NCBI GenBank assembly: GCA_947259705.1
Contig: CAMYNL010000002.1
Location: 9,868-73,867, forward strand
Length of the DNA stretch: 64,000 nt
From: an uncultured Gammaproteobacteria bacterium
Lineage (GTDB): Bacteria; Pseudomonadota; Gammaproteobacteria; Arenicellales; JAANXG01
Reading direction: 5' to 3'
Shown: positions 31,818 to 56,089 of the stretch, piece by piece
Position numbering within the stretch: position 1 is the stretch's first letter
How the letters are laid out: every line of letters begins with the position of its first letter
Made by a program: the position numbers and the translations under genes
Notes under the pieces: generated by a model
The model's database searches: none
Seen by the model: only the letters and a program-made list of their open reading frames with translations
What the model was told of the DNA's origin: nothing

Positions 31818-31833
31818 AGCAATAATGGTGCCA
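31818..31833 (-). promoter_or_regulatory. sigma-54 promoter of the PQQ dehydrogenase operon
   Basis: The minus strand reads TGGCACCATTATTGCT, a perfect TGGCAC-N5-TTGC, about 113 nt upstream of the ATG at 31705. Confidence 0.7.
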
Positions 31834-39986: not shown

Positions 39987-40238
39987 CTAGCCGCCGGCCA
40001 CCGGCGGCCAGATGGCCAGCACGTCGTTTTCCGCCAGCACCGGCTGCTCGCGGCGCTCGGGCGCCACGTAGCCGCCGTTGATGAGCACCAGGTGCGCCAT
40101 CGGACGCGGCACCTTGAACATGTCGATCACCTGGTTCGGCGTGGCATCGTCCGGAACCTCCACCACGGTCGCGTTTTCACGCGACTCCGCCGGCAGCAGG
40201 TCCCCCAGGGTGGCGAAAAGCTTCAAAGTAATCTTCAT
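39987..40238 (-). CDS. MoaD/ThiS-family ubiquitin-like sulfur carrier (ends ...PPVAGG)
   Basis: MKITLKLFATLGDLLP...VLINGGYV...DVLAIWPPVAGG*. Its ATG overlaps the upstream TGA (ATGA). 83 aa. Confidence 0.8.
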   Translation of the reverse strand: MKITLKLFATLGDLLPAESRENATVVEVPDDATPNQVIDMFKVPRPMAHLVLINGGYVAPERREQPVLAENDVLAIWPPVAGG

Positions 40239-41497
40239 ACCACATAGGCATTGAAGCCCACGGCCTGGGTGCGCGCCAGGTACGCCTCCATGATGCGCGT
40301 CGGGTCCTGGATCAGCCGGTCTTTCCATTCGCCCAGCCGGGTACGGCTCTGGATCAGGCCGCGCAGCACGCCGACATTATCGGTGAGACCAAGACTGGAG
40401 GCGCCCACCAGCAAGTCATCCGCGAACTGCAGGTTGAGGTACTTGAACCCGCCCGGATCGTTCAGCTCGGTGCTTTCGCCGCCGTCCACCCCCATCCACA
40501 TGCCGAAGGAACTGGAGATCAGCCCCATGGTGTCGAGCACGTTCATGTTGACGCTGCCCTGGTGGACCTGGGACATACCCGCCATGTTGCTGGCGGCTAT
40601 GCGCCCGTGGTCCGCGGCGGTGGGCTGGATCGCCTGCACCGAGTACTCGCCGGTGGAGAAATCCTTGCCCTGGCACACGTCGCCGGCGGCATAGATGCCC
40701 GGCTGGCTGGTCTCAAGATGGGTATCCACGAGGATGCCGTGGTCGGTGTCGATGCCCGACCCCTCCAGAAAACCGATATTGGATCGCACGCCGGTGGCGG
40801 AGATGACCATGTCGGCGCCGGCGGTCTCAGCGTTGCTCAACACCACGTTCAGCGCGCCGCCGGAGGCCTCGATGGCCTCCACCTTGGTCGAGGTATGGAC
40901 GCGCACGCCCTTATGCTCGCACCAGGCCTTGATCAGTCCGCCCGAAGCCTCGTTCATCATCCGCGGCACCATGCGGTTCTCCATCTCCACGACGGTGAGG
41001 TCAACCCCGCTGCTGGCCAGCGCTTCAAGTATGATACAGCCGATGAACCCGGCCCCCATCAGCACCACCCGGTTGCCCGGCTGGCACAGGCTGACGATGT
41101 TTCGTGCGTCCTCCAGGGTCCAGCAGTTGTAGACGCCCTGTGACTCCACGCCCGGCACCGGCGGCGTCGCAGGACTGGAGCCGGTGGCGATGAGCAGACG
41201 GTCGAAGGCGACGGATCCACCACCGGCCAGGCTGAGTTGCTTGCCGGCGGCGTCCACCGTGGCGACGCGATCCTGTACCAGGTCTATGCCGAGCCCGGCA
41301 AAATGATCCGCGCCCTTGCGCAGATGGGTTCCCTTCTCGTCTATCTGCTTGATCAGGAAATAAGGGATGGCCATGCGCGAGTAGGGCGGTTCCGGCTCGT
41401 CACCGATAATACTTATCTTGGCATCGGCGTCGAGCCGCCGTATGTGCTCGGCAGCGACGACCCCCGCTGGTCCCGCACCAATGATTACGTGATGCAT
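40235..41497 (-). CDS. aorC: FAD/NAD(P)-dependent pyridine nucleotide-disulfide oxidoreductase family, AorC-like subunit
   Basis: 420 aa with MHHVIIGAGPAGVVAAEH (FAD GxGxxG) and a second Rossmann VVLMGAGFIGCI. Its position after the AOR gene matches the AorABC operons. Confidence 0.75.
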   Translation of the reverse strand: MHHVIIGAGPAGVVAAEHIRRLDADAKISIIGDEPEPPYSRMAIPYFLIKQIDEKGTHLRKGADHFAGLGIDLVQDRVATVDAAGKQLSLAGGGSVAFDRLLIATGSSPATPPVPGVESQGVYNCWTLEDARNIVSLCQPGNRVVLMGAGFIGCIILEALASSGVDLTVVEMENRMVPRMMNEASGGLIKAWCEHKGVRVHTSTKVEAIEASGGALNVVLSNAETAGADMVISATGVRSNIGFLEGSGIDTDHGILVDTHLETSQPGIYAAGDVCQGKDFSTGEYSVQAIQPTAADHGRIAASNMAGMSQVHQGSVNMNVLDTMGLISSSFGMWMGVDGGESTELNDPGGFKYLNLQFADDLLVGASSLGLTDNVGVLRGLIQSRTRLGEWKDRLIQDPTRIMEAYLARTQAVGFNAYVV

Positions 41498-41520
41498 CGT
41501 GCACTCTCCATATTCTTTGG

Positions 41521-41550
41521 TAAAAAACGGGTGGGTCCTGAGGACCCACC
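41521..41550 (-). terminator. intrinsic terminator/attenuator between aorB and aorC
   Basis: The minus strand reads GGTGGGTCC-tca-GGACCCACC followed by cgtttttt. It is followed by SD GGAGA and the aorC ATG. Confidence 0.6.
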
Positions 41551-41597
41551 ACTGTTCGGCAATCTACACAAACAGCCTTTTGTTTTAGAGGAGGAGA

Positions 41598-43448
41598 TCA
41601 CAAACCCAGTCGTTGTTTGGTCTCATCGGTGACGACGCCGTCCGCCGTCCAGCCGCGGATCTTGTAGTACTCCGGCAGCATCTTGCCGAGTTCGTTCACC
41701 TTGCCCTGGGCCGGACCGGCGTTCGCAGCTTCTTCCAGCAGGCGCTTGGGCAGCGTGTCATCCTTGCCCGTCACACCGGCCAGGCGGTTGAACTCGCGTT
41801 CCATGTTCCAGATCCGTTCCCCCAGTTCCACCAGCTTCTCGGTGGTCCACCCGCCCTCGCAGGCGGCGTCGAGCTGCGGCGCCACGTCGTCCAGGGTCCA
41901 GGCAAAGGAGGTGAACACGCACAGGCCGCTGGAATCGAAGGCGGCGGTGGCGTCCTGGAAGGCCTTGACCAGCTCCGCCTTGCCCTCGGTGGCCAGCGGA
42001 TCGGTCTTTTCCGGGATGCCGAGGATCTCGGAGGCGACGGTGTAGCCGCGCAGGTGGCAGGCGCCGCGGTTGGAGGTGGCGTAGGCCAACCCCATGCCCT
42101 GGATGCCGCGCGGATCGTAGGCCGGAAATTCCTGGCTCTTCACGGTCATGGAGAGCTCGGGATGACCATACTTCTCGCACATCCTCCTGGAGCCCAGCGC
42201 CAGGTCGCGGCCGAAACCCTCACCCGCGGCCACCATCTCGACGCCATGCACCAGCGCCTCGGCGGAACCGAAATTGTAGGCCATGCCACCGGTGTGCTCA
42301 TTGGTGATCACGCCCATCTCGTAGAGCTCCATCGCCGCGGCGACGGTAGCGCCGAAGGAGATCGGATCGATGCCGTCCTCGTTGCACACGAAGTTGGCAT
42401 AGGTGATCGCATCGAGGTCATCAACGCCGTTGTCCGAACCCAGCGACCAGGCCGCCTCGTATTCCAGCCCGCCGGAGGCCTTCCAGTACTCGGGCTTGTT
42501 CTTGATGGTGAAGTGGCCCTGGTCGACGGTGGAGATGCGCCCGCAGGCGATGGTGCAGCCGAAACATGCCGCGTTGGTGGTCAGGTTGGGCTGACCATCG
42601 CTCGCGCGTGGCTCGTGCATCGCCTCGCCGGAGATCTTATGGGCGCCCTCGAACTGAGTCTCGCGCATGTTGCGGGTAGGCATCGCCCCCGACTCGTTTA
42701 TGACGTTCATCAACACCTGGGTGCCGTACTTGGGCAGGCCCTCGCCGGTCACGGCATTCTCGCGCAGCACCCGCTTGCCCTCCTCGGTGGCCTGCAGGAA
42801 ACGCATCGGGTCCTTGATATTGCCGACGCCCTTAGTGCCTCGAGCCACCACGGCCTTGAGGTTCTTCGACGCCATCACGGTGCCGACCCCGGAGCGGCCG
42901 GCGGCGCGGTGCAGGTCATTGACCACCGCGGAATAGAGGCAGCCGTTCTCCGCCGAGCGGCCCACCAGGGCGATCTTGATCAGGGCGTCCTGGTGCTTCT
43001 TGTGCAGGATCTCGTCGGCCTCCCACACCGATTTGCCCCAGATGTCACCGGCATCCATCAATTGGACGCTGTCGTCATGCACATACAGGTATACGGGCTT
43101 CGGCGACTTGCCCTCGAAGATGATCATGTCCCAGCCGGCGGCCTTCAGCTCGGCGCCGAAATAACCGCCGGAGTTGGAGCAGGCCACGGTGCCGGTGAGG
43201 GGGCTCTTGGTCACCACCGAGTACCGGCCGCCGGTGGAGGCCATGGTGCCGGTGAGGGGACCGGTGGTGACGATGAACTTGTTGTCCGGCCCCAGCGCGT
43301 CACAGGTGGGATCGACCTCCTCCACCAGGTACTTGGTCGCCAGCCCGCGCTGACCCAGGTACTGCTGGGCCCATTCCATGTTGAGCGGCTCTTCGGTGAT
43401 CTTGCCCTCGGTGAGGTTCACCCGCATCACTTTGTTGGTCCATGCCAT
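41598..43448 (-). CDS. aorB: tungsten-type aldehyde:ferredoxin oxidoreductase family protein (AorB-like)
   Basis: 616 aa from the ATG at 43448 (SD GAGGAGG). MAWTNKVMRVNLTEGKITEE...QYLGQRGLATKYL and the overall length are typical of the AOR family. Confidence 0.9.
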   Translation of the reverse strand: MAWTNKVMRVNLTEGKITEEPLNMEWAQQYLGQRGLATKYLVEEVDPTCDALGPDNKFIVTTGPLTGTMASTGGRYSVVTKSPLTGTVACSNSGGYFGAELKAAGWDMIIFEGKSPKPVYLYVHDDSVQLMDAGDIWGKSVWEADEILHKKHQDALIKIALVGRSAENGCLYSAVVNDLHRAAGRSGVGTVMASKNLKAVVARGTKGVGNIKDPMRFLQATEEGKRVLRENAVTGEGLPKYGTQVLMNVINESGAMPTRNMRETQFEGAHKISGEAMHEPRASDGQPNLTTNAACFGCTIACGRISTVDQGHFTIKNKPEYWKASGGLEYEAAWSLGSDNGVDDLDAITYANFVCNEDGIDPISFGATVAAAMELYEMGVITNEHTGGMAYNFGSAEALVHGVEMVAAGEGFGRDLALGSRRMCEKYGHPELSMTVKSQEFPAYDPRGIQGMGLAYATSNRGACHLRGYTVASEILGIPEKTDPLATEGKAELVKAFQDATAAFDSSGLCVFTSFAWTLDDVAPQLDAACEGGWTTEKLVELGERIWNMEREFNRLAGVTGKDDTLPKRLLEEAANAGPAQGKVNELGKMLPEYYKIRGWTADGVVTDETKQRLGL

Positions 43449-43461
43449 GTCGTGTACCTCC

Positions 43462-43980
43462 TCAGGCGCGCTGGTAAGAAGAGACGTCTTTCGACGCCGG
43501 CGTGTTGAAGCTCGCCTCGACCGGCTGGCTGCGCTGGGCCCAGGCGCGCATGCGGTCCAGGCCCGTGTGATCTCCATCCACGTAGGTGATGGCACCGGTC
43601 GGGCAGGCCTTCGCGCACCAGGGGTCGCCGCCGCACAGGTCGCACTTCACCACCTTGCCCGATGCCGAGTTGTAGTTCACGGTGCCGAAGGGACAGGCGA
43701 TGGTGCAGACCTTGCAGCCCACACAGGTATCCTCGAGCACCTCCTTGGCGCCGGTGGTCTCATTCACCACGATCGCCTCGACCGGGCAGGCATGCATGCA
43801 CCAGGCCTCGTCGCACTGGGTGCAGGTGTACGGCGCGAAACGGCCCGTGTCATGAAACATGAAGACCTTGATGCGGGACTTGGAGGGGTTGAACACCCCC
43901 TCGTTCTCGTAGGAACAGGCCATCTCGCACTGCAGGCAACCAGTGCATTTTTCTGGCTCCAGCTTGAGCGCTCTCAGCAT
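43462..43980 (-). CDS. aorA: 4Fe-4S polyferredoxin-like electron-transfer subunit (AorA-like)
   Basis: 172 aa with four Cys clusters (CTGCLQCEMAC, CTQCDEAWCMHAC, CVGCKVCTIAC, CDLCGG..WCAKAC). SD GGAGGAG. Confidence 0.85.
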   Translation of the reverse strand: MLRALKLEPEKCTGCLQCEMACSYENEGVFNPSKSRIKVFMFHDTGRFAPYTCTQCDEAWCMHACPVEAIVVNETTGAKEVLEDTCVGCKVCTIACPFGTVNYNSASGKVVKCDLCGGDPWCAKACPTGAITYVDGDHTGLDRMRAWAQRSQPVEASFNTPASKDVSSYQRA

Positions 43981-44079
43981 TGCAAAACTCCTCCGGATTT
44001 TCTCGTGGCTCTCGGTGGCTGAATATCATACAGGGTCAGCGCGGCGTTGCCGCGTAAACCGTGATAGCCATACGTTACC

Positions 44080-44095
44080 TGCAACTTGCGTGCCA
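44080..44095 (-). promoter_or_regulatory. sigma-54 promoter of the aor operon
   Basis: The minus strand reads TGGCACGCAAGTTGCA, a perfect TGGCACG-N4-TTGCA, about 100 nt upstream of the aorA ATG. Confidence 0.75.
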
Positions 44096-44179
44096 TGGAT
44101 GCGCGGCGCCTGTCTCGCGCCTAAACAGGCGGCCGGGGGCCTGGTCAGCCTCAGATTTGTTGCATACGCGCCTGGCGAT

Positions 44180-44195
44180 GTCCCAATAATGGGAC
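44180..44195. promoter_or_regulatory. perfect palindrome, candidate enhancer (UAS) for the AcoR-like activator
   Basis: GTCCCAATAATGGGAC lies about 90 bp upstream of the -24 element of the aor sigma-54 promoter. Confidence 0.3.
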
Positions 44196-44208
44196 ACCCG
44201 CGCGGGCT

Positions 44209-44649
44209 TTACCCGTCGTTGATCTGCAGGCGGACCTCGGTCACCTGGTCGCCGGCGACGAAGAAGGCCCGCAGCCGGTCTCCGACCGCGGCGTGGGGCG
44301 CGGCGATCACGTACAGGGCATCCGGATAGGCATGCAGCGCCAGGTCGGTGGCCGACGGATAGGCCGGCGCCTCGACATGGGAATGGTAGATGCCCAGCAG
44401 ATCCTCGCCCTGCTCCGCCATCGCCCGCATTGCCGCCAGCTGGCTGCGCGGTTCCATATCGAAATGCTGCCGGCGGTCGGCGGCGGCGTTGCGGGCGGGA
44501 TAGGCAGCGCGCACCATGCCGCCTTCGCCGCCGATCAGGCCGCACACCTCCTCGTCCGGGCTGCCGGCGGCATGGGTCAGGATGGCTTCCGCCACCGCCC
44601 GGGGGAAGGCGACCAGCGCCTGCGGCTGCCGGCGATCCGCGTCAGCCAT
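44209..44649 (-). CDS. JAMM/MPN+ (Mov34) metalloprotease-family protein
   Basis: EEVCGLIGG ... GIYHSHVEAPAYPSATD carries the E...HxH-x7-S-xx-D JAMM motif. The ATG at 44649 is preferred over the ORF-track start at 44742. Confidence 0.75.
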   Translation of the reverse strand: MADADRRQPQALVAFPRAVAEAILTHAAGSPDEEVCGLIGGEGGMVRAAYPARNAAADRRQHFDMEPRSQLAAMRAMAEQGEDLLGIYHSHVEAPAYPSATDLALHAYPDALYVIAAPHAAVGDRLRAFFVAGDQVTEVRLQINDG

Positions 44650-44830
44650 GACCGTCAGCGCGCCGGCGCCGGCGCCGGCCCGCCACCGGTGGCAGCGGTC
44701 CGCTCGAGGCGGGACACAACCGTCTCGGTTTTGTATCGTCAACTGTAATCAAGGTACACTGCCCGAAGGTCTCACATCTGCCGTGAATACAACAACATAA
44801 CACGAGTTGACGGCACGCCGGGCGGGACCA

Positions 44831-44846
44831 TGGCACGGTGTTTGCT
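44831..44846 (+). promoter_or_regulatory. sigma-54 promoter-like element directly upstream of the AcoR-like regulator gene
   Basis: TGGCACGGTGTTTGCT is a perfect TGGCAC-N5-TTGC. Its 3' end lies 20 nt before the ATG at 44867. Confidence 0.55.
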
Positions 44847-44866: not shown

Positions 44867-46912
44867 ATGAAAAGTACAACGAGGATGGACCACATCAGCA
44901 GGATCTCACGGGTCGCCAGGCTCGGCACGGCAGGCGACGAAGCCGCCCTCGAAGAGCAGGGTCTCGACGACCAGATCGTCTCCTCCTGGCATCGTTGTCT
45001 GTCCACCTATGGCATCGATCCGGTTTCCAGTCAGTCGGTAGTGGTGCTCGACTCGCCCGAGTTGAAAGAACACCAGGAACGGCTGGATCACATGCTCAAG
45101 ATCGCCGACGCCGAGATGCAGCTCGTCTACGAGGCGGCCGCCGGATCCGGCTACGCGATCATTCTCACCGATGCCCAGGGCGTCATCCTGCATCATGTCT
45201 CGGACCCGCGCCTGGAGCGGGAATTCCGCGACGCGGGCCTGTGGGTGGGGGCCAGCTGGGACGAGGAAGCGCAGGGCACCAACGGCATCGGCACCTGCAT
45301 CATCGAAGGGAAACCCATCACCGTGCACCGGGACGAGCACTTCCGCAGCCAGAACATCGACCTCACCTGCTCCGCGGCGCCGATCCGCGATCCGCGCGGT
45401 GAGCTTATCGCCGTGCTGGACTCGTCGGCGTGCACCAACGAGGATTCGCGCAATTCACAGACCCATGTGCGCGCGCTGGTCAGCACCTCCGCGCGGCTGA
45501 TCGAAAATCGTAATTTCCTTTTCGAATTCCGCAACAAGAAGGTGCTGCGTTTCCACAGCCGTCCCGAGTACGTCGGACTGCCGAACGAGGCGATGCTGGC
45601 GCTGGACGGGGACTGCCAGATCCTGGCGGCCAACGGCGTGGCGGTGGATTTTCTCAACGCCCATTCTCGCCGCGACCTGATAGGCAGGTCCTTGTCGGAG
45701 GTCCTCGACGCCAAGTCCACCCGCCTGATCGACGAGATGCGGTCAAAGATGGGGACGCTGCTTCCGATCCGGGGCCGCGCCACCGGGCGGCGCTTCTTCG
45801 CCATGCTGCATGCGCCCACGGCTCCCACCCCGGTTGCCCGGGTCGAGACGCCGGCGCCAACACGGCGTGACAAGTCACGTCTAGACCTGCGCGCGGTTGC
45901 CGGCCGGGACCCGCACATGAACTACAACGTGCGTTGCGCCGAGCGGATCATGAACAAGAACGTGCCCATCATCATCGAGGGCGAAACGGGTACCGGCAAG
46001 GAAGTGTTCGCGCTGGCCATCCACCTGGCAAGCGATCGGCGTGACCAGCCTTTCGTAGCGCTGAACTGCTCCGCGATTCCGGAGTCGCTGATCGAAAGCG
46101 AGTTGTTCGGCTACAAGCACGGCGCATTCACCGGCGCGCGGCGGGAGGGCATGAAAGGCAAGATACTGCAATCCAGCGGCGGCACCCTGTTCCTGGACGA
46201 GATCGGCGACATGCCGCTGCCGTTGCAGACCCGCCTGCTGAGATGCCTGGAGGAAGGCGAGGTCGTCCCGCTGGGCGGCGACAAATCCATATCGGTCGAC
46301 CTCAACGTCATCAGCGCCACCCACCGCGACCTGGAGTCATTGGTGGAGAGGGAGACTTTTCGCGAGGACCTCTATTACCGCCTCAACGGCATCAGCCTGA
46401 CGCTGGCGCCACTGCGTGAACGCGAGGACCGGGAGCAGTTGATCGAGTCTATCGTCGCCCTGGAAAACGAGAGCGACCAGGCGGTCAGGATCGACGACGA
46501 GGCCATGGACAAGCTGGTGCGCTTTGACTGGCCGGGCAATATTCGTCAGCTCCGCAATGTGATCCGCACCGCCTTGGCGATGGCCGACAACCATGTACTC
46601 AGGCTTGCCGACCTTCCCGGAGCGGTGGTCAATGCCCGGGAGCGCGCTAGCCCCGCGGGCGCGGCAAGGAGCCGTTTCGTCACCCAGTCGGCCGGCGCCT
46701 CGGTGCCGGAGACGGTGGGTCCCCGCGCGGCGGGTACCGCGGCCGAGGCGGAACTGAACCCCCTGGAGGTGGCGGAGAAGGAGGCCATCCTGATGGCGCT
46801 CGCCGCCAACTGCTGGAACATCACCAATACCGCCGCCGCGCTGGATATGAGCCGCAACACCCTGTACCGGAAACTGAAAAGGCACGGTCTTCCCACCACA
46901 CGTCCGGCCTGA
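44867..46912 (+). CDS. sigma-54-dependent transcriptional activator, AcoR-like (GAF sensor + AAA+ + Fis-type HTH)
   Basis: The N-terminal region IVSSWHRCLSTYGIDP is AcoR-like. It has the AAA+ Walker A motif GETGTGKE, the GAFTGA loop (HGAFTGA), and the C-terminal HTH NITNTAAALDMSRNTLYRKLKRHG. The start could instead be 44885. Confidence 0.85.
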   Translation: MKSTTRMDHISRISRVARLGTAGDEAALEEQGLDDQIVSSWHRCLSTYGIDPVSSQSVVVLDSPELKEHQERLDHMLKIADAEMQLVYEAAAGSGYAIILTDAQGVILHHVSDPRLEREFRDAGLWVGASWDEEAQGTNGIGTCIIEGKPITVHRDEHFRSQNIDLTCSAAPIRDPRGELIAVLDSSACTNEDSRNSQTHVRALVSTSARLIENRNFLFEFRNKKVLRFHSRPEYVGLPNEAMLALDGDCQILAANGVAVDFLNAHSRRDLIGRSLSEVLDAKSTRLIDEMRSKMGTLLPIRGRATGRRFFAMLHAPTAPTPVARVETPAPTRRDKSRLDLRAVAGRDPHMNYNVRCAERIMNKNVPIIIEGETGTGKEVFALAIHLASDRRDQPFVALNCSAIPESLIESELFGYKHGAFTGARREGMKGKILQSSGGTLFLDEIGDMPLPLQTRLLRCLEEGEVVPLGGDKSISVDLNVISATHRDLESLVERETFREDLYYRLNGISLTLAPLREREDREQLIESIVALENESDQAVRIDDEAMDKLVRFDWPGNIRQLRNVIRTALAMADNHVLRLADLPGAVVNARERASPAGAARSRFVTQSAGASVPETVGPRAAGTAAEAELNPLEVAEKEAILMALAANCWNITNTAAALDMSRNTLYRKLKRHGLPTTRPA

Positions 46913-46946
46913 CCGGCGGGTGACCGCCGGCCACGGCGCATGGCGT

Positions 46947-46962
46947 TGGTATCCATTTTGCA
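46947..46962 (+). promoter_or_regulatory. candidate sigma-54 promoter upstream of pqqB
   Basis: TGGTATCCATTTTGCA has GG and GC correctly spaced, with two deviations from TGGCAC in the -24 hexamer (TGGTAT). It lies about 40 nt before the pqqB ATG. Confidence 0.45.
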
Positions 46963-47001
46963 TGCAGGGAAGGCGCGACCCTTAGCAGAGAACCCTGATT
47001 G

Positions 47002-47916
47002 ATGCAGATACTGGTGCTCGGTTCCGCCGCCGGCGGAGGATTCCCGCAATGGAACTGCAACTGTGAGATGTGCTCGGGCGTGCGCAGCCAGCGCATTCGG
47101 GCACGCCCGCGCAGCCAGTCGTCGATCGCGGTGAGCAGAAACGGCGTCGACTGGGCGCTGATCAACGCCTCGCCGGACATCCGACAGCAGCTGCTCGCGA
47201 ACCCGGCACTGCAGCCGGCGCGCCAGAAACGCGACACCGGTGTGCGCGCGGTGGTGCTGATGGACAGCCAGATCGACCATACCACCGGGCTGCTGACGCT
47301 GCGCGAGAACCAGGAGCCGCTGCAGCTGTACTGTACCGCCATGGTCCACCAGGACCTCACCACGGGGTTTCCGGTCATCGACATGCTGCAGCATTACTGC
47401 GGCGTGGAGTGGCACGAGATCGACCTCGATGCGGCGAAGTTTTCGGTGCGCGCGGTGGACGGCATCGGCTTTCGCGCCGTGCCCCTGTCCAGCAAGGCGC
47501 CGCCCTATTCGCCGCACCGCAACGACCCGCATCCCGGCGACAATATCGGGCTGCTCATGGAGGACATGGAAACCGGAAAAACGGCATTCTATGCCCCGGG
47601 GCTGGCGGCCGTGAGCGAGGACCTGGTGCCATACATGGCGTCGGCCGACTGCCTGCTGGTGGACGGCACCTGCTGGACCAACGATGAGATGCCGCAACGC
47701 GGCGTGGGCGCCAAGCTCTCCCTGGACATGGGCCACCTGCCGCAGTCCGGCGACGGAGGCATGATCGAGCAGCTGCGGCGGTTCGATCGCCAGCGCAAGA
47801 TACTCATCCATATCAACAATACCAACCCGATCCTCGAAGAGGACTCGACGGCCCGGGCGCGGCTCGACGCCGTCGGCATCGAAGTGGCGTGGGACGGGAT
47901 GACGCTGGAACTGTGA
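47002..47916 (+). CDS. pqqB: PQQ biosynthesis protein B
   Basis: [24 protein letters not shown]... is a typical PqqB N-terminus with MBL-like fold. Confidence 0.95.
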
Positions 47917-47918
47917 GT

Positions 47919-48665
47919 ATGAACCCCCCTGCCGCCGCCGACCTGCCGCCCTGGTCTCGAGCAGAATTCGCGGACCGGCTGCGTGCCTACGGGGCACGCT
48001 ACCATATCCACCATCCTTATCAACGCATGATGGCCGCGGGCGAGTTGAGCAGGGAACAGATACAGGGATGGGTGGCCAACCGTTACTACTACCAGGTCAG
48101 CATCCCGATCAAGGACGCCAACCTGCTCGCCAACTGTCCGGACCGGGAGACCCGCCGCCTGTGGGTGCAGCGCATACTCGACCATGATGGCTATGGCGGC
48201 GAGTCCGGAGGCATCGAGGCCTGGCTGGCGCTGGGGGAAGCGGCGGGGCTGGACCGCGACACGCTCGAGTCCCAGCGCATGGTGCTGCCGGGGGTGCGTT
48301 TCGCGGTTGACGCCTACATCAATTTCGTCCGCCGCGCCGACTGGCACGAAGGGGCCGCGTCTTCGTTGACCGAACTGTTCGCGCCGGAGATCCACAAGCA
48401 ACGGCTCGACAATTGGCCGCAACACTATCCATGGGTTGACCAGGCCGGGTTTCAGTATTTCCGCAAGCGACTCGCCGAGGCCCGTCGCGACGTCGAACAC
48501 GGCCTGGAACTCACGCTCGACTACTTCAACACACGAACGCTGCAGGAGCGGGCACTGGAACTGCTGCAGTTCAAGCTGGACATACTTTGGACCATGCTGG
48601 ATGCCATGTACATGGCGTACGTGAACCAGATGCCGCCTTATTTCAACTGCGAGGAGATTCGATGA
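47919..48665 (+). CDS. pqqC: pyrroloquinoline-quinone synthase PqqC
   Basis: MNPP...[33 protein letters not shown]... The ATG is 2 nt after the pqqB stop. Confidence 0.95.
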
Positions 48666-48955
48666 ACCAAGTATCCGTAGACAGTGTTTACCGGCTGTCT
48701 CCCACCCACCGCCTGCAATGGGAGGCGGCGCAGAATTCAGATGTACTCTTGTATCCGGAAGGGATGGTAACGCTCAACCAGAGCGCCAGCGAGATCCTCA
48801 AGCATTGCGACGGCTCGCGCAGTGTCCAGGAGTTGGTGCAGGAACTGGAACGCAAGTTCTCGGCCCGGGACCTTACCCAGGAGGTCATCAGTTTCCTCGA
48901 AGCCGCCCTGGAGCGCGGCTGGATCAAGCGCGCCGAAAACGCATCCGGTCAGTGA
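48662..48955 (+). CDS. pqqD: PQQ biosynthesis peptide chaperone PqqD
   Basis: 97 aa: [54 protein letters not shown] overlap with pqqC. Confidence 0.9.
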
Positions 48956-49701
48956 CGCGGCCCGACCCTCACCACCGGCTGCTGCTGCAATGGTTGCTGT
49001 TCGCCGGTATCCTGGTGTTTGCCATCTGGGTGGCCTGGGACCATGGCCTGCTGGAGAAAGTGTACCGCAGCGACCCGACACGGTTGTCGCTGGTAATTTC
49101 ACTGCTGTTTGTGGCCGCCACGGTTCACTGCGCCGCCCGCGCGCTGTATCTTTCGCGGCAACTCAACCACATTAATGCCATTCGGCACCTCACCGCACAA
49201 CAGCGCTTTGCGCCGCGGTTGCGGGACGGACAACTGGTCATCGGCAACGCCCATGCCGCCGGGTCCCTGCCCGCCGTCTATCTCGCCGCGATCCTTGCCA
49301 AGTACCAGGCCAAAGCGCCGGTGGAACTTCGCGGCCTGGAACATGCGCAGCTAACCGAGGTGCTCGCGGAACAGGCGCGCGGCCCCCACGAGACCGGGTG
49401 GTTCGTCACCGGATTGCTGTTGAAGCTGGGACTGCTGGGCACGGTGATCGGATTCGTACTGATGCTCGGGTCGGTCTCGGGCATCGAGTCCTTCGACGTG
49501 CAGGACGTGCAGGCAGTGCTCAAGAACATGACGGTGGGGATGGCGGTTGCACTGAACACCACGCTCATCGGCTTGCTCGGCAGCATGCTGCTCGGCTTCC
49601 AGTACCTGCTGCTGGACCGCGGCGCCGACAAACTGGTGGCTGACACGGTGCATTATGCCGAGACCAGCCTGCTGCCCGTGCAGCCTACGCAAAACGGGTA
49701 G
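48952..49701 (+). CDS. MotA/TolQ/ExbB-family proton-channel protein (cassette gene 1)
   Basis: About 249 aa from the GTG at 48952, which overlaps the pqqD TGA (GTGA). It has four predicted TM helices. The C-terminal blocks LGLLGTVIGFVLML and GMAVALNTTLIGLLGSMLLGF are typical of ExbB/TolQ. Confidence 0.75.
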   Translation: MTRPDPHHRLLLQWLLFAGILVFAIWVAWDHGLLEKVYRSDPTRLSLVISLLFVAATVHCAARALYLSRQLNHINAIRHLTAQQRFAPRLRDGQLVIGNAHAAGSLPAVYLAAILAKYQAKAPVELRGLEHAQLTEVLAEQARGPHETGWFVTGLLLKLGLLGTVIGFVLMLGSVSGIESFDVQDVQAVLKNMTVGMAVALNTTLIGLLGSMLLGFQYLLLDRGADKLVADTVHYAETSLLPVQPTQNG

Positions 49702-49709
49702 GCCTCGGT

Positions 49710-50318
49710 TTGGCCTTTCGGCGACCACGACGACAGCTTGATCAGGATCCGTTCACCGACCTGCTGTTCAATTCCCTGCTGGCCTTTACCTTTCTGTTCC
49801 TGATCACCATCATGTTTCTGAACCCGCCGGCAAAGACCGGCATCATCGACCCCAAGGCCGAGTTCATCATCACCACCAAATGGGAGGACTTCAGCCCCGA
49901 TGACATCGATACCTGGGTAGAGGACCCGAAAGGCGACATCGTATGGTTCCGCAGCGCGGAAGCGGGGCTGATGCACCTGGATCGTGACGATCGTGGCATC
50001 AGTAACGACATGATGCTGGTCAACAACGAGGAATTGATAAACCCTCTCAACCAGGAGGTGGTGACCATACGCGGCTTCGTGCCGGGAGAGTACGTCGTTA
50101 ACCTGCATTACTATGCCAGCAAGACCGGCAAACCGGCAGCGGTGACGGTTCGTGTCGTCAAGGTGAACCCGAGGCTTCAGGTGGTTTACTACGGGACGGT
50201 CACGCTGGCCAGGGTGGGAGCGGAAACAACGGCCGTGCGCTTCTCGGTGACCCCGGATGGCGCCGTCGAGGGTATCAACACCATACAGAAATCGATAGTG
50301 TTGGTAGACAAGATATGA
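49710..50318 (+). CDS. ExbD/TolR-like single-pass protein with unrelated periplasmic domain (cassette gene 2)
   Basis: TTG start, with no in-frame ATG before the TM helix. RRPRRQLDQDPFTDLLFNSLLAFTFLFLITIMFL resembles the ExbD/TolR N-terminus, including the Asp at the TM entry. The roughly 150-aa C-terminal domain is unrecognised. Confidence 0.6.
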   Translation: MAFRRPRRQLDQDPFTDLLFNSLLAFTFLFLITIMFLNPPAKTGIIDPKAEFIITTKWEDFSPDDIDTWVEDPKGDIVWFRSAEAGLMHLDRDDRGISNDMMLVNNEELINPLNQEVVTIRGFVPGEYVVNLHYYASKTGKPAAVTVRVVKVNPRLQVVYYGTVTLARVGAETTAVRFSVTPDGAVEGINTIQKSIVLVDKI

Positions 50319-50827
50319 ACGAGGCAATCATAGGACTGACCGTAGCCTACGTCGCGTTGGCCGGCTTCGTAATCGGGCTCAGCATCTTTTCACGCTGGCC
50401 ATACTGGGTGAAACTCATCTCGGTGGCCGGCGTGTGCGGCCTTTATTTCCTTACCTACGCCTCGTTCAAGGGCCTGCTCGGCTGGCCGACCCGGGCCGAA
50501 CTGCCGGCGCACTTCATGTTGCTGGCGTCCTATGTCAGCGAACCCGACAAGGCCGGCGGCAGCGCGGGAAGTATCCAGATCTGGGCGGCATCACTGGCAG
50601 GTAACCGGCCGGCCGAGGCGCCGCGCGCCTATCACCTCGACTATGACGCAGAACTGCATGGTCAGCTGGAAGAGGCAGACAAGCGCATGCGACAGGGCAT
50701 CATCCAGCTCGGGCGCAAGCAGGATGCAGCGACTGCGGGCGACTCCGGTGACCCTTCCCGTTTCGCCCGCAACCCTTACCGCATCGTGATCTTCGATCTG
50801 CCAGATCCGGAGCTGCCCGAGAAGTGA
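50315..50827 (+). CDS. hypothetical membrane protein (cassette gene 3)
   Basis: 170 aa. Its ATG overlaps the upstream TGA. It has about three N-terminal TM helices and a charged soluble tail. Confidence 0.6.
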   Translation: MNEAIIGLTVAYVALAGFVIGLSIFSRWPYWVKLISVAGVCGLYFLTYASFKGLLGWPTRAELPAHFMLLASYVSEPDKAGGSAGSIQIWAASLAGNRPAEAPRAYHLDYDAELHGQLEEADKRMRQGIIQLGRKQDAATAGDSGDPSRFARNPYRIVIFDLPDPELPEK

Positions 50828-50909
50828 CCGGTGACCGGGTGCCGCGCGGAAACTGCTGCCGGCCGTCGCCGGAGCCCGCCCTGCCGGGGCGGGATCCCAG
50901 CCCAGACGT

Positions 50910-51653
50910 GTGATCTCGCAGGCCGCTGACGTGCCGCCCCGAGCCATCTCAGGACCCGCTTTCCACCTCGGCTGCGGGCTGGTCTTGGCAGTCACCATGC
51001 TGAGCGGGTGCCAGCAAACGGACCGCGGCTATTTCCCCCTGCACGACGGAGCGCGGTGGGAGTACCGCTTGACGAGTACGTGGAGCGACGGCGAGGAGAC
51101 CACCCGCTACGCGGTGACCAACCTCCGGTCAACCATGCTGGATGGACGACCCGCCACCATACGCCGCGACAGCCGGGGCACCGATTACTACATCACCCAG
51201 GATCGGCAGGGTATCGCCCGGGTGGCGAAGCGCACCGTGGTCGAGTTCGAGCCGCGACCTGAACCGGAACCGCGCTACGTCATCAAGTTTCCCCCTGTTG
51301 TCGGCACGGAGTGGCGGGTGAGCAGCCATCCCTTCCTGCTGAAGCGGCTGCTTCCCTTCAAGGAACGCTTCAATCGTGATTTCAGCGTGGTCATGCAGTA
51401 CAGCATCGTCAGCACCGACGCGGCGGTCAGCGTACCGGCCGGACAGTTTACCGGCTGCCTGCTGCTGCAGGGCGAGGGTACCCTGCGCATCTACGCTGAC
51501 GCGGTGGCAGGGATTTCCGAGGTGCCGGTTACCTCCCGTGAGTGGTACGCACCCGGCGTGGGGCTGGTCAAACTTGAGCGCCGGGAGGAGCTGAACACCA
51601 CCCAGATCATCGGCGGCTCGGCACGGCTTGAACTGCTCCGTCACCGCCGCTGA
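50910..51653 (+). CDS. hypothetical lipoprotein (cassette gene 4)
   Basis: Lipobox AVTMLSGCQQ. GTG start at 50910 or 50931. I recognise no family for the mature part of about 215 aa. Confidence 0.6.
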   Translation: MISQAADVPPRAISGPAFHLGCGLVLAVTMLSGCQQTDRGYFPLHDGARWEYRLTSTWSDGEETTRYAVTNLRSTMLDGRPATIRRDSRGTDYYITQDRQGIARVAKRTVVEFEPRPEPEPRYVIKFPPVVGTEWRVSSHPFLLKRLLPFKERFNRDFSVVMQYSIVSTDAAVSVPAGQFTGCLLLQGEGTLRIYADAVAGISEVPVTSREWYAPGVGLVKLERREELNTTQIIGGSARLELLRHRR

Positions 51654-51744
51654 ACTGGTTCGCCGCATCCAGCATGGTGGCTGTATACAACCATTTCGTG
51701 ATCCGGTGCCGGGCAATCCGCGCGCCCGTCGCCGCCATGAGACC

Positions 51745-51760
51745 TGGCATGGTTCTTGCT
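51745..51760 (+). promoter_or_regulatory. sigma-54 promoter upstream of pqqA
   Basis: TGGCATGGTTCTTGCT has a single mismatch to TGGCAC-N5-TTGC with correct spacing. It lies about 104 nt before the pqqA ATG. Confidence 0.65.
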
Positions 51761-51863
51761 TTCCATACAGAGACTTCAGTGCAAAGTGCGGCCGACCGTT
51801 GGCTTCGGGTAGGCCGTCAAATAATCAAGCAGCAATCTGTCAACTTGAATGGAGTAGCGAGAT

Positions 51864-51938
51864 ATGATTTGGTCAACACCTGAGTTCAAAGATCTGCGGT
51901 TGGGCTTCGAGATCAACCTGTACATCAACAACCGCTAA
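51864..51938 (+). CDS. pqqA: PQQ precursor peptide PqqA (24 aa, absent from the ORF track)
   Basis: [24 protein letters not shown] contains the conserved E-x3-Y (EINLY) and the DLRLG context. SD GGAG lies 9 nt upstream. Confidence 0.9.
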
Positions 51939-51954
51939 GCAGTCCGGCATGCGG

Positions 51955-51976
51955 CGCGGACCGGTTCCGGTCCGCG
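51955..51976 (+). terminator. stem-loop immediately after pqqA (attenuator or stabiliser)
   Basis: cgcggaccgg-tt-ccggtccgcg is a 10-bp perfect inverted repeat, 17 nt after the pqqA stop. There is no U-run. Confidence 0.5.
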
Positions 51977-52053
51977 TCCATTGCTCCCCCAGCCCTCCCG
52001 TGTACCGGGGGTCCCTGTATCAACCGCGCGAGTTCCGCGCCCGGTTCCCGACC

Positions 52054-53205
52054 GTGTCCCAGAACGTCATCGATCCGCAGGCCCTAGGCAAGCCCCTGTG
52101 GCTGCTGGCGGAGTTGACCTACCGCTGCCCGCTACAGTGTCCCTACTGCTCCAATCCGCTTGACCTGGCGCGCTACCGCGACGAGCTTTCCACTGCGGAC
52201 TGGGTGCGGGTGTTTACCGAGGCGAGGGCAATGGGAGCCACCCAGCTCGGCTTCTCCGGCGGCGAACCGCTGGTCCGCAAGGACCTCACGGAACTGGTTG
52301 CCGCGGCCCGCGGCCTCGGTTATTACACCAACCTGATCACCTCAGGCGTAGGCATGAACGAGTCGCGCATCCGCTCGCTGAAGGAAGCCGGCCTGGATCA
52401 CATCCAGATCAGCTTCCAGGCCAGCAGCGAGGAACTCAACAACTATCTGGGCGGCAGCGACAGTTTCCGGCACAAGATGGAAATGGCCCGCCTGGTCAAG
52501 GCCTACGAGTACCCGATGGTGCTGAACGTGGTGCTGCACCGGCAGAACATCGATTACATGCGCGAGATCCTGGACATGGCCGTGATGCTGGAAGCCGACT
52601 ACGTGGAGCTGGCCAACACCCAGTACTACGGCTGGGCCTACGTCAACCGGGACCAGCTGCTGCCCCAGCGTGAACAGATCGAGCAGGGCGAGCGCATTGC
52701 CCACGAGTACCAGGACCGGCTGCGCGGACAGATGAAGATCTACTACGTGGTGCCGGACTATTTCGAGGGCCGCCCGAAAGCGTGCATGAGTGGCTGGGGC
52801 TCCATATTCCTCACCATTGCCCCGGACGGCACGGCCCTGCCCTGCCATGCCGCCGGCCAGCTGCCGGGCCTCGGCTTCCCCAACGTCCGCGAACACACTA
52901 TCGACTGGATCTGGAACGACTCTCCCGACTTCAATCTGTTCCGGGGCGAGGACTGGATGCGCGAACCCTGTCGCTCGTGCCCGGAACGCTCCAGGGACTT
53001 CGGGGGCTGCCGCTGCCAGGCCTACATGCTGACCGGTGACCCCCGCAACACCGATCCGGCGTGCAGTCTCTCGCCCCAGCACGAGAAGATCATCCAGGCC
53101 GTCGACCGCGCCGGTGGTGCGCCGGAAGAAAAGCCGCTGGTATTCCGCAACCTGCGCAACGCCCGGACACTGAGCGGGTCGCCGCCCGCCCCGCCCACCG
53201 ACTGA
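52054..53205 (+). CDS. pqqE: PQQ biosynthesis radical-SAM enzyme PqqE
   Basis: [24 protein letters not shown] carries the CxxxCxxC motif, plus the SPASM-type C-terminal Cys-rich region. The GTG at 52054 is preferred (383 aa). The ORF-track start at 51949 is also possible. Confidence 0.9.
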
Positions 53206-53255
53206 TCACGCCGCCCGCTGCCGGCGCGGCCCGTTCGGGCCGTATAATCCGGGAC

Positions 53256-54701
53256 ATGCCCGGTGACGCGAAATCCCTCTCCCGCCTGTTGCTGAGCTAC
53301 GAGCTGGCGTTCACCCTGCTGATCGTGGTGACAGCCAGCGTGGGCGGCGTCTGGGTGTATTTCTGGCAGCAGAACTCCCGGGCGTCACTGGAGATAAACC
53401 GCCTTTCCTATGATGCGCAGCAGCTGCGCGCCGACCTGTACCGCCAGATCCGCGAGGTCTACGTGGCCAGCCGTGCCCAGGACCCGCGGGTCCTCGACAA
53501 GTACTGGACCCACATCTATGACATCGACCGCCGGTTCCATGCGCTGGAACAGGTGGTGACCGGCGGCGAGGCCTCCGCGATCCGCGGCATGCGCAACGCC
53601 TACGAAATGCTGCAGGCGCAATTGAACCGGGTACTGTCGCAGTCAGTCAGCGAGAGCCGGCGTGAGCGCATCATTCAACCTGCCTACGAGTTCTGGCTGC
53701 AGGGAGAATTCGAATCCGAGTTCGCCCGCCTGAACCAGTTGATCGCCGAGCGCCGCGCCCTGCTGGACCGGCGCCTGGCGCGCTGGAACCGCGTCGCCCC
53801 CTGGCTGCTGCCGGTGCCGATCCTGCTCGCGGTGTGGTTGCTGGGACGCTCGCACCGGCGGCTGCGGCGGGAGTTTTCGCAGCCCATGGCCGAACTGAAA
53901 AGCGGCGCAGAGCAGATCAGCGAGGGCAGGCTGGAGCACCGCGTCAATGAGCAAGGGGCCGAGGAAGTGGCCCTGCTGGCGCGGACGATCAATCAGATGG
54001 CGGCGGAACTCGCAGCCAGCCGCGACGAACTGGTGGAGAAGGAGCGACAAGCGGCGCTGGGCGCGCTGGTGCCCGTTGTCGCCCATAACATACGCAACCC
54101 GCTGGCCAGCATCAGGGCCTCGGCGCAGATCCTCGATCCGGCTGATCGCGCCGAGCTGGACGAGACCCGGCGCGGCATCATCGATACAGTGGACCGGTTG
54201 GAACGCTGGGTCAGCGCACTGCTTTCCTACCTGCATCCGCAGACACCCAGGCGCAGCGAGGCGCAGCTCGAGGAGATCATCAATGGGGCGCTGGCACCCC
54301 TGCGGGCCAGGGCACGCGACAAGGACGTCCAGCTACACCACCATGCGGCCCCACCGGGGCGTAGCCTGCTGATAGACAGCGCGTTGATGGAGCAGGCGAT
54401 CCACGGCTTGGTGCTCAACGCGCTGGAGGCGGCTCCCGACGGCAGCACCATCGATATCAGGCGCCAGGAGCAGGGACGGGGCGCGGTGATACTGATCGAG
54501 GATGAGGGCACAGGGATGCCCTTCGACCCCAGCCCCGGCGATTTCTCTCCGGGCCCGACCACCAAACCGTCGGGTACCGGCCTGGGGATACCTTTCGCCC
54601 ACAAGGTGATACATGCCCATGGTGGTACACTGGAATTCGAAGGCAGAAGGAAACACGGAACGCGGGTCCGCGTCACCATCCCCTACCAAGGAAACACATG
54701 A
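53256..54701 (+). CDS. sensor histidine kinase (2 TM, HAMP, HisKA, HATPase_c)
   Basis: ATG at 53256. HAMP segment ...EEVALLARTINQMAAEL, H-box VVAHNIRNPLASI and G-boxes EDEGTGM / GTGLGIPF. Confidence 0.85.
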   Translation: MPGDAKSLSRLLLSYELAFTLLIVVTASVGGVWVYFWQQNSRASLEINRLSYDAQQLRADLYRQIREVYVASRAQDPRVLDKYWTHIYDIDRRFHALEQVVTGGEASAIRGMRNAYEMLQAQLNRVLSQSVSESRRERIIQPAYEFWLQGEFESEFARLNQLIAERRALLDRRLARWNRVAPWLLPVPILLAVWLLGRSHRRLRREFSQPMAELKSGAEQISEGRLEHRVNEQGAEEVALLARTINQMAAELAASRDELVEKERQAALGALVPVVAHNIRNPLASIRASAQILDPADRAELDETRRGIIDTVDRLERWVSALLSYLHPQTPRRSEAQLEEIINGALAPLRARARDKDVQLHHHAAPPGRSLLIDSALMEQAIHGLVLNALEAAPDGSTIDIRRQEQGRGAVILIEDEGTGMPFDPSPGDFSPGPTTKPSGTGLGIPFAHKVIHAHGGTLEFEGRRKHGTRVRVTIPYQGNT

Positions 54702-56089
54702 GCGGTCCCGAGAGCACGATCCGTATTGCGCTGGTGGAAGACGAGGCATTGTTCGCCAAGGCGGTGGAGCGGACCCTGAATCGGCATGGTTACGAAACCA
54801 CGGTCTTCGGCTCACTGTCTGCGGCCGCGGAGGCGGTGCCCGCGCTGCAGCCGGACCTGATGCTGCTGGACATGCGTCTCCCCGACGGCTCGGGCCTGGA
54901 TTACCTGGAGCGCCTGCGCGGCGACAAGTCCGCGCAGGCGGTGGTGGTAATGACCGCGTTCGGCGACCTTGAGAACGCCGTCGCTGCGATGAAGCTCGGG
55001 GCCCTGGATTACCTCAAGAAGCCCATCGACATGGACGACCTGGTGCATGCCGTGGACAAGGCACTGGAACAGGTGCAGCTAACGCGCAGACTCGGCTATT
55101 CGCGGCAGCGCGAAGCGCGGGGCAACCGGGAGAACACGTTGCTGGGAGAAAACCCGCAGATCGTGGAGCTGCGGGAGGAGATCGCCCACATCGGCGCGAT
55201 CAGCACCCGCACCGACGAACCCCCTCCAACGGTGCTGATCCTGGCTGAGACAGGCTGCGGCAAGGACCTGGTGGCCAGGGCGCTGCACGATGCCAGCGCC
55301 CGCCGCGACCGCCCGTTCGTGCAGGTCGATTGCGCCGCCCTCCCCGACGAGCTTATCGAGTCGGAATTGTTCGGGCACGAGAAAGGGGCCTTCACCAGTG
55401 CCCATAGACAACGCAGCGGGCTTATCGAGGCGGCCGAAGACGGTACCGTGTTTCTTGACGAGATCGGTGAACTGCCGCTGGACCTGCAGGCGAAACTGCT
55501 CGCGGTGCTGGAACGACGCAAGGTGCGCGCGGTCGGCAGTACGCGGGAACGGGACACCCAGGCCTGGTTCATCGCCGCCACCAACCGGGATCTCAATGCG
55601 ATGGTGGCCAACGGGGCTTTTCGCTCCGACCTCTACTTTCGCCTCAACATCGTCACCCTCAGCATACCGCCCCTGCGCGAGCGCGGGGGCGACGTGCAGC
55701 TGCTGGCCCGACATTTCGCCGCCCAGGCCACGCGTCGTTACGGCGTCACGGGCATAGAACTGAAACCGGAGATTATCGACCAACTGGACCGATATGCGTG
55801 GCCGGGCAACGTGCGCGAACTCGCCCACGTCATGGAACGCGCCGTGCTGTTGAGCCGGGACGGCAATGTCACCGCCGCTCAACTCGCCCTGGCCCCGCCA
55901 CGGGATACCGCAAGTGCAGAGGCTGCCCTGGACAACCTGACGCTGGAGGAGGCGGAACTGCGGCTGATCCGCCATGCCCTGCAGAGAACCCGCGGTAACG
56001 TGTCGGAGGCGGCGCGGCGCCTCGGTGTTACCCGGATGACGATGCGCCACCGGATCAAGAAGTACGGCCTGGACGACCGCGACAGCTGA
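54698..56089 (+). CDS. sigma-54-dependent response regulator (NtrC family)
   Basis: REC domain (LMLLDMRLPDGSG), AAA+ domain (AETGCGKD, GAFTSA, ELGELPL) and C-terminal HTH NVSEAARRLGVTRMTMRHRIKKYG. Overlaps the kinase stop. Confidence 0.9.
   Translation: MSGPESTIRIALVEDEALFAKAVERTLNRHGYETTVFGSLSAAAEAVPALQPDLMLLDMRLPDGSGLDYLERLRGDKSAQAVVVMTAFGDLENAVAAMKLGALDYLKKPIDMDDLVHAVDKALEQVQLTRRLGYSRQREARGNRENTLLGENPQIVELREEIAHIGAISTRTDEPPPTVLILAETGCGKDLVARALHDASARRDRPFVQVDCAALPDELIESELFGHEKGAFTSAHRQRSGLIEAAEDGTVFLDEIGELPLDLQAKLLAVLERRKVRAVGSTRERDTQAWFIAATNRDLNAMVANGAFRSDLYFRLNIVTLSIPPLRERGGDVQLLARHFAAQATRRYGVTGIELKPEIIDQLDRYAWPGNVRELAHVMERAVLLSRDGNVTAAQLALAPPRDTASAEAALDNLTLEEAELRLIRHALQRTRGNVSEAARRLGVTRMTMRHRIKKYGLDDRDS

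Follow-up and report, generated by a model that had tools for sequence, protein, structure and literature searches.

The 24-codon reading frame directly upstream of pqqE in the window (the whole 64-kb stretch of DNA that was analysed) is a genuine PqqA family gene that occupies a non-canonical yet recurrent position. It is quite probably the functional precursor gene of the cluster, read from a sigma-54 promoter of its own and followed by a 3' hairpin that would hold pqqA mRNA far above pqqE mRNA. The operon around it is a rearranged variant rather than a one-off displacement, since at least 12 other loci share the arrangement in part and one, L087, shares it fully.

Identification of pqqA and layout of the cluster

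A preliminary description of this DNA had claimed an unannotated pqqA, a 24-codon frame with the PqqA E-x3-Y core, located after pqqBCD and a cassette and directly 5' of pqqE, with no pqqA-like frame 5' of pqqB. It had proposed alignment to the PqqA family models as a check. The coordinates and the peptide were found exactly as described, and both models recognized the peptide above cut-off, TIGR02107 (NCBIfam equivalog) with 39.8 bits (E 2.8e-10; cut-off 20) and PF08042 (Pfam) with 33.8 bits (gathering cut-off 21.1). The E-x3-Y core lies near the C-terminus of the 24-residue PqqA as Glu16-Ile-Asn-Leu-Tyr20, of which Glu16 and Tyr20 would be the residues converted to PQQ. Column for column, the peptide lines up with the 100 PqqA sequences found in related loci, every conserved residue being kept in the window copy, and locus L001 holds a pqqA copy identical to it. 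Comparison with ten relatives of 77–84% nucleotide identity gave 71 synonymous and 36 non-synonymous codon differences (summed over the ten pairwise comparisons) that were concentrated at third positions, indicating that the frame is under coding selection.

The JGI gene calls of the source contig, a 146-kb metagenome contig, lack pqqA and leave exactly its gap empty, so the label "unannotated" is correct. A six-frame scan of the whole 64 kb revealed no second PqqA-like ORF with a G-x-E-x3-Y core, and no PqqA-like ORF was present in the 87-bp gap 5' of pqqB, as the preliminary description had held. In addition, pqqB, pqqC, pqqD and pqqE all lie less than 5 kb from pqqA on the same strand and score above their equivalog cut-offs (Table 1).

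The order on the plus strand is a GAF-type sigma-54 activator gene, pqqB-C-D, a four-gene cassette, pqqA, pqqE, a histidine kinase gene and a sigma-54 response regulator gene, which bears out the claimed gene order; the canonical order, with pqqA first and then pqqB, does not occur in the window. The GAF-type activator matched the Pfam families Sigma54_activat (217 bits), GAF and HTH_8, the JGI call also starting at 44885, and an orthologue adjoins pqqB in L087, L053, L059 and L144; it is a candidate activator of the pqq promoters. The kinase and the response regulator form a second candidate activator pair, with orthologues adjoining pqqA-pqqE in L087, L048, L053, L059, L066, L070 and L144. 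Thus, two proteins with a GAFTGA-type loop adjoin the cluster; the loop of the GAF-type activator is canonical, and the NtrC-type regulator has GAFTSA in place of the usual GAFTGA.

About 20 kb upstream of the pqq cluster lies a gene for a PQQ-dependent alcohol dehydrogenase (794 bits on TIGR03075). Moreover, an aldehyde ferredoxin oxidoreductase operon adjoins the activator gene both in the window (39987-44742, minus strand) and in L087 (1-4998), where it comes with genes for a 4Fe-4S ferredoxin, a pyridine nucleotide-disulfide oxidoreductase, and JAB and ThiF-like proteins.

Table 1. Genes and sequence elements of the pqq region and its surroundings (positions in the window)
Feature	Position	Strand	Remarks
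Sigma-54-type site, PQQ-dependent alcohol dehydrogenase gene (start 31705)	31818-31833	-	perfect match
Sigma-54-type site, ferredoxin/aldehyde ferredoxin oxidoreductase operon (start 43980)	44080-44095	-	perfect match
Sigma-54-type site, GAF-type activator gene	44831-44846	+	perfect match
Sigma-54 enhancer-binding protein (MimR_N/GAF, AAA+ GAFTGA, Fis-type HTH)	44885-46912	+	directly 5' of pqqB
Sigma-54-type -24/-12 element TGGTATCCATTTTGCA	46947-46962	+	39 nt before the pqqB ATG
pqqB	47002-47916	+	TIGR02108, 423 bits, above cut-off
pqqC	47919-48665	+	TIGR02111, 361 bits, above cut-off
pqqD	48662-48955	+	TIGR03859, 99.5 bits, above cut-off
Cassette gene 1, MotA/ExbB-like channel	48952-49701	+	PF01618, 31.5 bits; start overlaps the pqqD stop
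Cassette gene 2, 202-aa membrane protein	49710-50318	+	no family
Cassette gene 3, 170-aa membrane protein	50315-50827	+	no family
Cassette gene 4, 218-aa lipoprotein	50997-51653	+	no family
Partial-dyad block GCATCCAGCATGGTGGCTGTATACAACCATTT, candidate activator-binding site	51665-51696		about 50-80 bp 5' of the -24 element
Sigma-54-type -24/-12 element TGGCATGGTTCTTGCT	51745-51760	+	10/11 positions of TGGCAC-N5-TTGCW
Shine-Dalgarno sequence GGAG	51851-51854	+	9 nt before the pqqA ATG; kept in the alignment with L087
pqqA, PQQ precursor peptide	51864-51938	+	ATG 51864 to TAA 51938, 24 codons
GC-rich stem-loop	51946-51985	+	fold; 11-bp core stem 51953-51978, loop GUUC, outer helix
pqqE, radical SAM/SPASM enzyme, predicted PqqA Glu-Tyr cross-linker	52054-53205	+	TIGR02109, 564 bits
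HAMP histidine kinase	53256-54701	+	Pfam
NtrC-type sigma-54 response regulator, GAFTSA motif	54698-56089	+	Pfam

Position of pqqA in related loci

To place the arrangement among relatives, loci were sampled with PqqE as the anchor, comprising 80 genome loci and 80 metagenome loci, and four more were added via a cassette protein. The resulting census covered 162 non-redundant loci and 100 pqqA genes; all pqq genes and PqqA-like small ORFs were mapped, the latter by means of a profile derived from the PqqA peptides already recovered. The metagenome loci, which reach a closest PqqE identity of 72% and do not include the source population, were used to enlarge the census.

Among the 100 pqqA genes, the next gene was pqqB in 64 cases, pqqC in 22, pqqE in 12 and pqqD in one, with none within range in the remaining one. 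The loci with pqqA before pqqE include those of Salinisphaera aquimarina (L053) and Endozoicomonas sp. G2_2 (L059). L087, a 4.68-Mb circular contig (ENA ERZ25072999, ctg322039_18x_c), displays the exact gene order of the window, cassette included, with proteins 50–84% identical to those of the window. The order of pqq genes in this clade is generally fluid.

In 63 of the 162 loci no pqqA was present in the DNA scanned around pqqE, some of these loci having the canonical pqqBCDE order; pqqA is therefore often located far from the other pqq genes there. An artefact was considered as the cause of this absence and rejected: the pqqA-less loci contained no N runs or other masked sequence, no E-x3-Y small ORFs 5' of pqqB or pqqC, and no profile match at E 10. 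Loci without a PqqA-like ORF within 10 kb of pqqE are L007-L012, L015, L016, L019, L023, L025, L026, L028, L030, L033, L035 and L038, among others, and loci taken from complete chromosomes are among them. A further arrangement was observed in L162 (metagenome contig Ga0114898_1000526), where two pqq clusters stand back to back, a canonical pqqABCDE and a divergent pqqA-pqqD-pqqE with the distinct peptide MQWINPDFCDLRLGFEVTAYVYVR.

A conserved sigma-54-type promoter element before pqqA

The preliminary description had also assigned pqqA a sigma-54 promoter of its own. The element TGGCATGGTTCTTGCT is present, and from its location transcription of pqqA would start near 51771, leaving a 5' UTR of about 93 nt. 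Taken from the window alone, the match is weak evidence, as six sites with at most one mismatch were found against 2.75 expected, and 36 sites with at most two mismatches against 36 expected.

The comparison with relatives is more informative. Sites were counted that kept the invariant GG and GC, matched at least 9 of the 11 positions and lay 30–135 nt 5' of the pqqA start codon. Such a site precedes 26 of the 32 pqqA genes in the closer genome loci, against a background of 1.4% per stretch (binomial p 2.5e-43, without correction for shared ancestry, although the flanks are too diverged to align), so the position claimed for the promoter is conserved. Sorted by the gene that follows, the site occurred in 10 of 12 pqqA genes before pqqE, 18 of 20 before pqqC and 19 of 62 before pqqB; in the Pseudomonas-like loci it was found in 1 of 24. 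In L087, a site with 10 of 11 matches is located 77 nt 5' of pqqA although the spacer hardly aligns with that of the window. In this comparative sense the predicted sigma-54 promoter of pqqA is real. It is not a result of displacement, because pqqA of this clade has one wherever it is located.

The -24/-12 site before pqqB likewise has counterparts in L087 (11/11), L053 and L059, and a search of 46500-53500 for sigma-70-like promoters found none. Considering also the perfect sites listed in Table 1, the alcohol and aldehyde oxidation region as a whole looks like a sigma-54 regulon. In the literature searched, apparently no paper links pqqA with sigma-54/RpoN. Judged by that literature, the sole feature of the present locus that seems not to have been described before is the conserved -24/-12 promoter together with its dedicated activators.

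Where an activator might bind is suggested faintly by the partial-dyad block at 51665-51696, which is among the few stretches of the spacer that can be aligned with L087 at all and could conceivably serve as a binding site. Many relatives carry TGGTT-N5/6-AACCA palindromes 5' of the pqqA promoter. The strict form of this pattern had no match in the pqqA promoter region of the window, the block being differently spaced, and where other parts of the window do match it, the matches are intragenic. In L053 (about 9600-9760) and at the equivalent places of L059 and L144, four or five TGGCCA-N4-TGGCCA-like repeats stand 5' of the pqqA promoter, and these repeats in place of TGGTT...AACCA suggest a different activator specificity.

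The hairpin between pqqA and pqqE

A perfect 10-bp inverted repeat before pqqE, likewise noted in the preliminary description, was recovered as CGCGGACCGG-TT-CCGGTCCGCG at 51955-51976; it is unique in the window and folds as a strong stem-loop. The 52 nt of 51939-51990 gave a minimum free energy of -28.3 kcal/mol (z = -3.07), and 1 of 200 shuffled sequences folded as well. The whole 291 nt of leader, pqqA and spacer folded no better than shuffles (z 0.09), the local hairpin alone being significant. An Rfam search of 51400-52300 returned no family match.

Whether the repeat is coding depends on the start of pqqE, which is probably GTG 52054. This codon was placed by comparison with L087, L017, L024 and L029, and the PqqE proteins of relatives start 11–13 residues before a conserved motif, with stop codons farther upstream. 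With pqqE starting there, the inverted repeat lies in a 115-nt pqqA-pqqE spacer and is not coding. The pqqE frame is open for 35 codons 5' of this GTG (51949-52053). Two longer starts were considered, ATG 51949, which is 10 nt past the pqqA stop and within the hairpin region, and the gene caller's GTG 52000; both are too long according to the alignment with relatives, the call of the source contig at 52000 probably by 18 codons.

A stem-loop within about 50 nt past the pqqA stop was found in nearly all of 55 distinct loci, including all 12 with pqqA before pqqE. The hairpins of different loci have unrelated sequences, as illustrated by L087, whose 12-bp hairpin bears no resemblance to that of the window; three relatives' hairpins gave z values of -3.6 to -5.1. 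The tail after the stem in the window, UCCAUUGCUCCCCC, has no U-tract, so the hairpin is not a canonical intrinsic terminator, and it was not among the hits of the terminator scan. A T-run follows the hairpin in Pseudomonas and the AT-richer relatives and is absent from the window and from most relatives of high GC content.

The preliminary description had suggested that the layout would permit high precursor expression with little read-through into pqqE. Hairpin attenuation of this kind is the established model for pqqA generally, and by analogy it may apply here. In Ketogulonicigenium vulgare (K. vulgare), the pqqA message was about 1,000-fold above those of the co-transcribed downstream genes, an excess that depended on the GC-rich spacer after pqqA, which had a translational effect besides (PMC10520945). 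RNA-seq of P. brassicacearum gave log2 TPM values of 12.8 for pqqA, 6–7 for pqqB, pqqC and pqqD, and 4.0 for pqqF (PMC6722718).

The four-gene cassette

Three of the four cassette proteins gave no hit with PADLOC and relaxed Pfam searches, which returned only a generic MotA/ZorA match for the first. In relatives, the cassette was located at 9241-11849 of L087, 7203-9816 of L088 and 9256-11831 of L090. It stands alone in L088-L090, with no pqq gene nearby in L088 and L089.

A tie of the cassette to quinoprotein or PQQ biology, for example as a proton-driven membrane machine exporting PQQ or its precursor, is an improbable idea. To our knowledge, the export of PQQ or a precursor from the cytoplasm is a step that has never been assigned a protein. 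The first gene of the cassette overlaps the pqqD stop and would be transcribed from the sigma-54 promoter of pqqB, L087 retains the insertion although the proteins are only 50–75% identical, and the cassette of L090 adjoins genes for ABC-transporter and periplasmic binding proteins of the kind found alongside quinoprotein dehydrogenases. However, the family is very widespread, with 6,604 homologues of the 202-aa protein alone (the best 120 at 65% identity or more), and besides the pqq-less surroundings in L088 and L089, none of the 80 genome loci has the cassette within 10 kb of pqqE, and none of the 80 metagenome loci has it within 7 kb.

Proposed mechanism

The observed layout, together with the promoter element and the hairpin that are conserved across relatives, suggests a model in which the pqq cluster is split into two units, each with its own sigma-54 (-24/-12) promoter. 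We infer the activity of these promoters, the activator that acts on them and the effect of the hairpin on transcript levels. Unit 1 would comprise pqqB-pqqC-pqqD and the four-gene MotA/ExbB-like cassette, and unit 2 would comprise pqqA-pqqE and probably also the genes for the histidine kinase and the response regulator. The promoters would presumably be turned on by one of the neighbouring sigma-54 activators or by both. Sigma-54 RNA polymerase would then start near 51771 and yield a short pqqA message, while the GC-rich hairpin 15 nt past the stop would halt most polymerases (by termination, or as a pause or roadblock), block 3' exonucleases after processing, or both. By either route, pqqA mRNA would accumulate far above pqqE mRNA, an excess that would suit a peptide consumed stoichiometrically as opposed to a catalytic enzyme. 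Since there is no terminator between the cassette and the pqqA promoter, transcripts running on from the pqqB unit may also contribute.

Alternative explanations

Because it has 24 codons only, and 186 ORFs of at least 20 aa occur in 14 kb, the frame could be thought a chance small ORF and no gene. This notion is practically ruled out by profile scores about twice the curated cut-offs and by the substitution pattern; the peptide is identical in 22 of 24 residues to that of a Chromatiaceae genome despite 17% nucleotide divergence, which falls mainly on third positions. It is also hard to believe that pqqA here is a redundant or silent extra copy and that the working precursor gene resides elsewhere in the genome. 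Some methylotrophs are known to have more than one pqqA copy, and L162 has two. The scan covered 64 kb of the genome, and the 63 of 162 related loci without pqqA in the DNA scanned indicate that the gene is often remote. Yet the copy at issue is the sole pqqA in 64 kb, is situated beside the maturase gene pqqE with all conserved residues kept, and combines synonymous-biased substitution with a conserved ribosome-binding site, promoter and hairpin.

Given a functional pqqA, its expression could be explained in other ways than by its own sigma-54 promoter and a terminating hairpin. One long operon, pqqBCD-cassette-pqqA-pqqE, might be read from the pqqB promoter, the -24/-12 match before pqqA being fortuitous or minor. 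In its favour, the genes all point the same way and either overlap or are separated by short gaps, the stretch between the cassette and pqqA lacks a convincing terminator, and the count of -24/-12 sites in the window is near chance. Nevertheless, this explanation appears very unlikely in view of the very large enrichment of sites over background and of their position, which is kept in 10 of 12 pqqA-before-pqqE loci; moreover, in L053, L059 and L144 read-through is impossible because pqqBCD lie on the opposite strand. A post-transcriptional origin of the pqqA excess deserves somewhat more credit, although it is still rather unlikely: the polymerase would read through, and the hairpin would mainly be an mRNA-stability or processing element, or a barrier to pqqE translation. 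Such roles would agree with the lack of a U-tract here and in most of the GC-rich relatives and with the GTG start of pqqE, which has no visible Shine-Dalgarno sequence. Part of the effect of the spacer in K. vulgare is translational, reducing expression of the downstream genes (PMC10520945). On the other side, the same hairpin is followed by terminator-like T-runs in Pseudomonas and the AT-richer relatives, suggesting a termination role at least there. Transcription termination and RNA stability or processing are not mutually exclusive roles for the hairpin.

Comparison with known systems

Compared with the canonical pqqABCDE(F) operons of the Klebsiella, Pseudomonas, Acinetobacter and Methylobacterium types, the window gene belongs to the same PqqA family (TIGR02107/PF08042), has the same size and shares the pattern W-x-x-P ... 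DLR-x-G-x-E-x3-Y-x3-R. Both cluster types include pqqB, C, D and E and have a stem-loop directly after pqqA. In contrast to the canonical operon, pqqA of the window is neither first nor before pqqB but follows pqqBCD and four unrelated genes, and its -24/-12 promoter sets it apart from the Pseudomonas-type loci, nearly all of which lack one (1/24 with a site). The regulator reported for the Pseudomonas pqq operon is AgmR (PMC12997753).

Closer counterparts are split-cluster loci of other Gammaproteobacteria, namely L053, L059 and the MAG or metagenome loci L048, L066, L110, L126, L133, L143, L144 and L153, which share the adjacent pqqA-pqqE. Like the window, they have a hairpin between the two genes, most have a -24/-12 site before pqqA, and orthologous histidine kinase and sigma-54 response regulator genes adjoin pqqA-pqqE; a further likeness of L053, L059 and L144 is that the GAF activator and pqqBCD form a unit of their own, equipped with a separate -24/-12 site. 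The split-cluster loci differ from the window in the orientation of the kinase and regulator genes, which diverge from pqqA-pqqE, and in pqqBCD, which either converges from the opposite strand or is missing at the locus. The MotA/ExbB-like cassette is found in none of them, and only L087 has both the tandem order of the window and the cassette.

The attenuated locus of K. vulgare resembles the window in the GC-rich structured spacer that follows a short, AT-richer pqqA (PMC10520945). The large excess of the pqqA message observed in K. vulgare would be expected for the window as well. The gene behind the hairpin is pqqE in the window and pqqB in K. vulgare and Methylobacterium extorquens. A short abundant pqqA transcript was reportedly described in M. 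extorquens by Ramamoorthi and Lidstrom in 1995. As in RiPP clusters of the mycofactocin mftA-mftB-mftC type, the precursor gene lies directly 5' of the first-acting radical SAM/SPASM maturase gene. Unlike in such precursor-maturase clusters, the chaperone gene pqqD is not placed between the two but 3 kb upstream, in the other proposed transcription unit.

Implications

The pqq cluster looks incomplete in the source annotation because blindness to short genes leaves pqqA uncalled; once pqqA is counted, the core gene set for PQQ synthesis, pqqA-E, is present and could supply the cofactor to the quinoprotein alcohol dehydrogenase. These findings do not alter how PQQ biosynthesis itself is understood. 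They do show that the pqq order in uncultured Gammaproteobacteria is much more fluid than the textbook pqqABCDE, and that two small signals, a -24/-12 promoter and a 3' hairpin, accompany pqqA wherever it is located. Sigma-54 control of the PQQ precursor supply would offer a handle on how cofactor synthesis may be coupled to the availability of alcohols and aldehydes.
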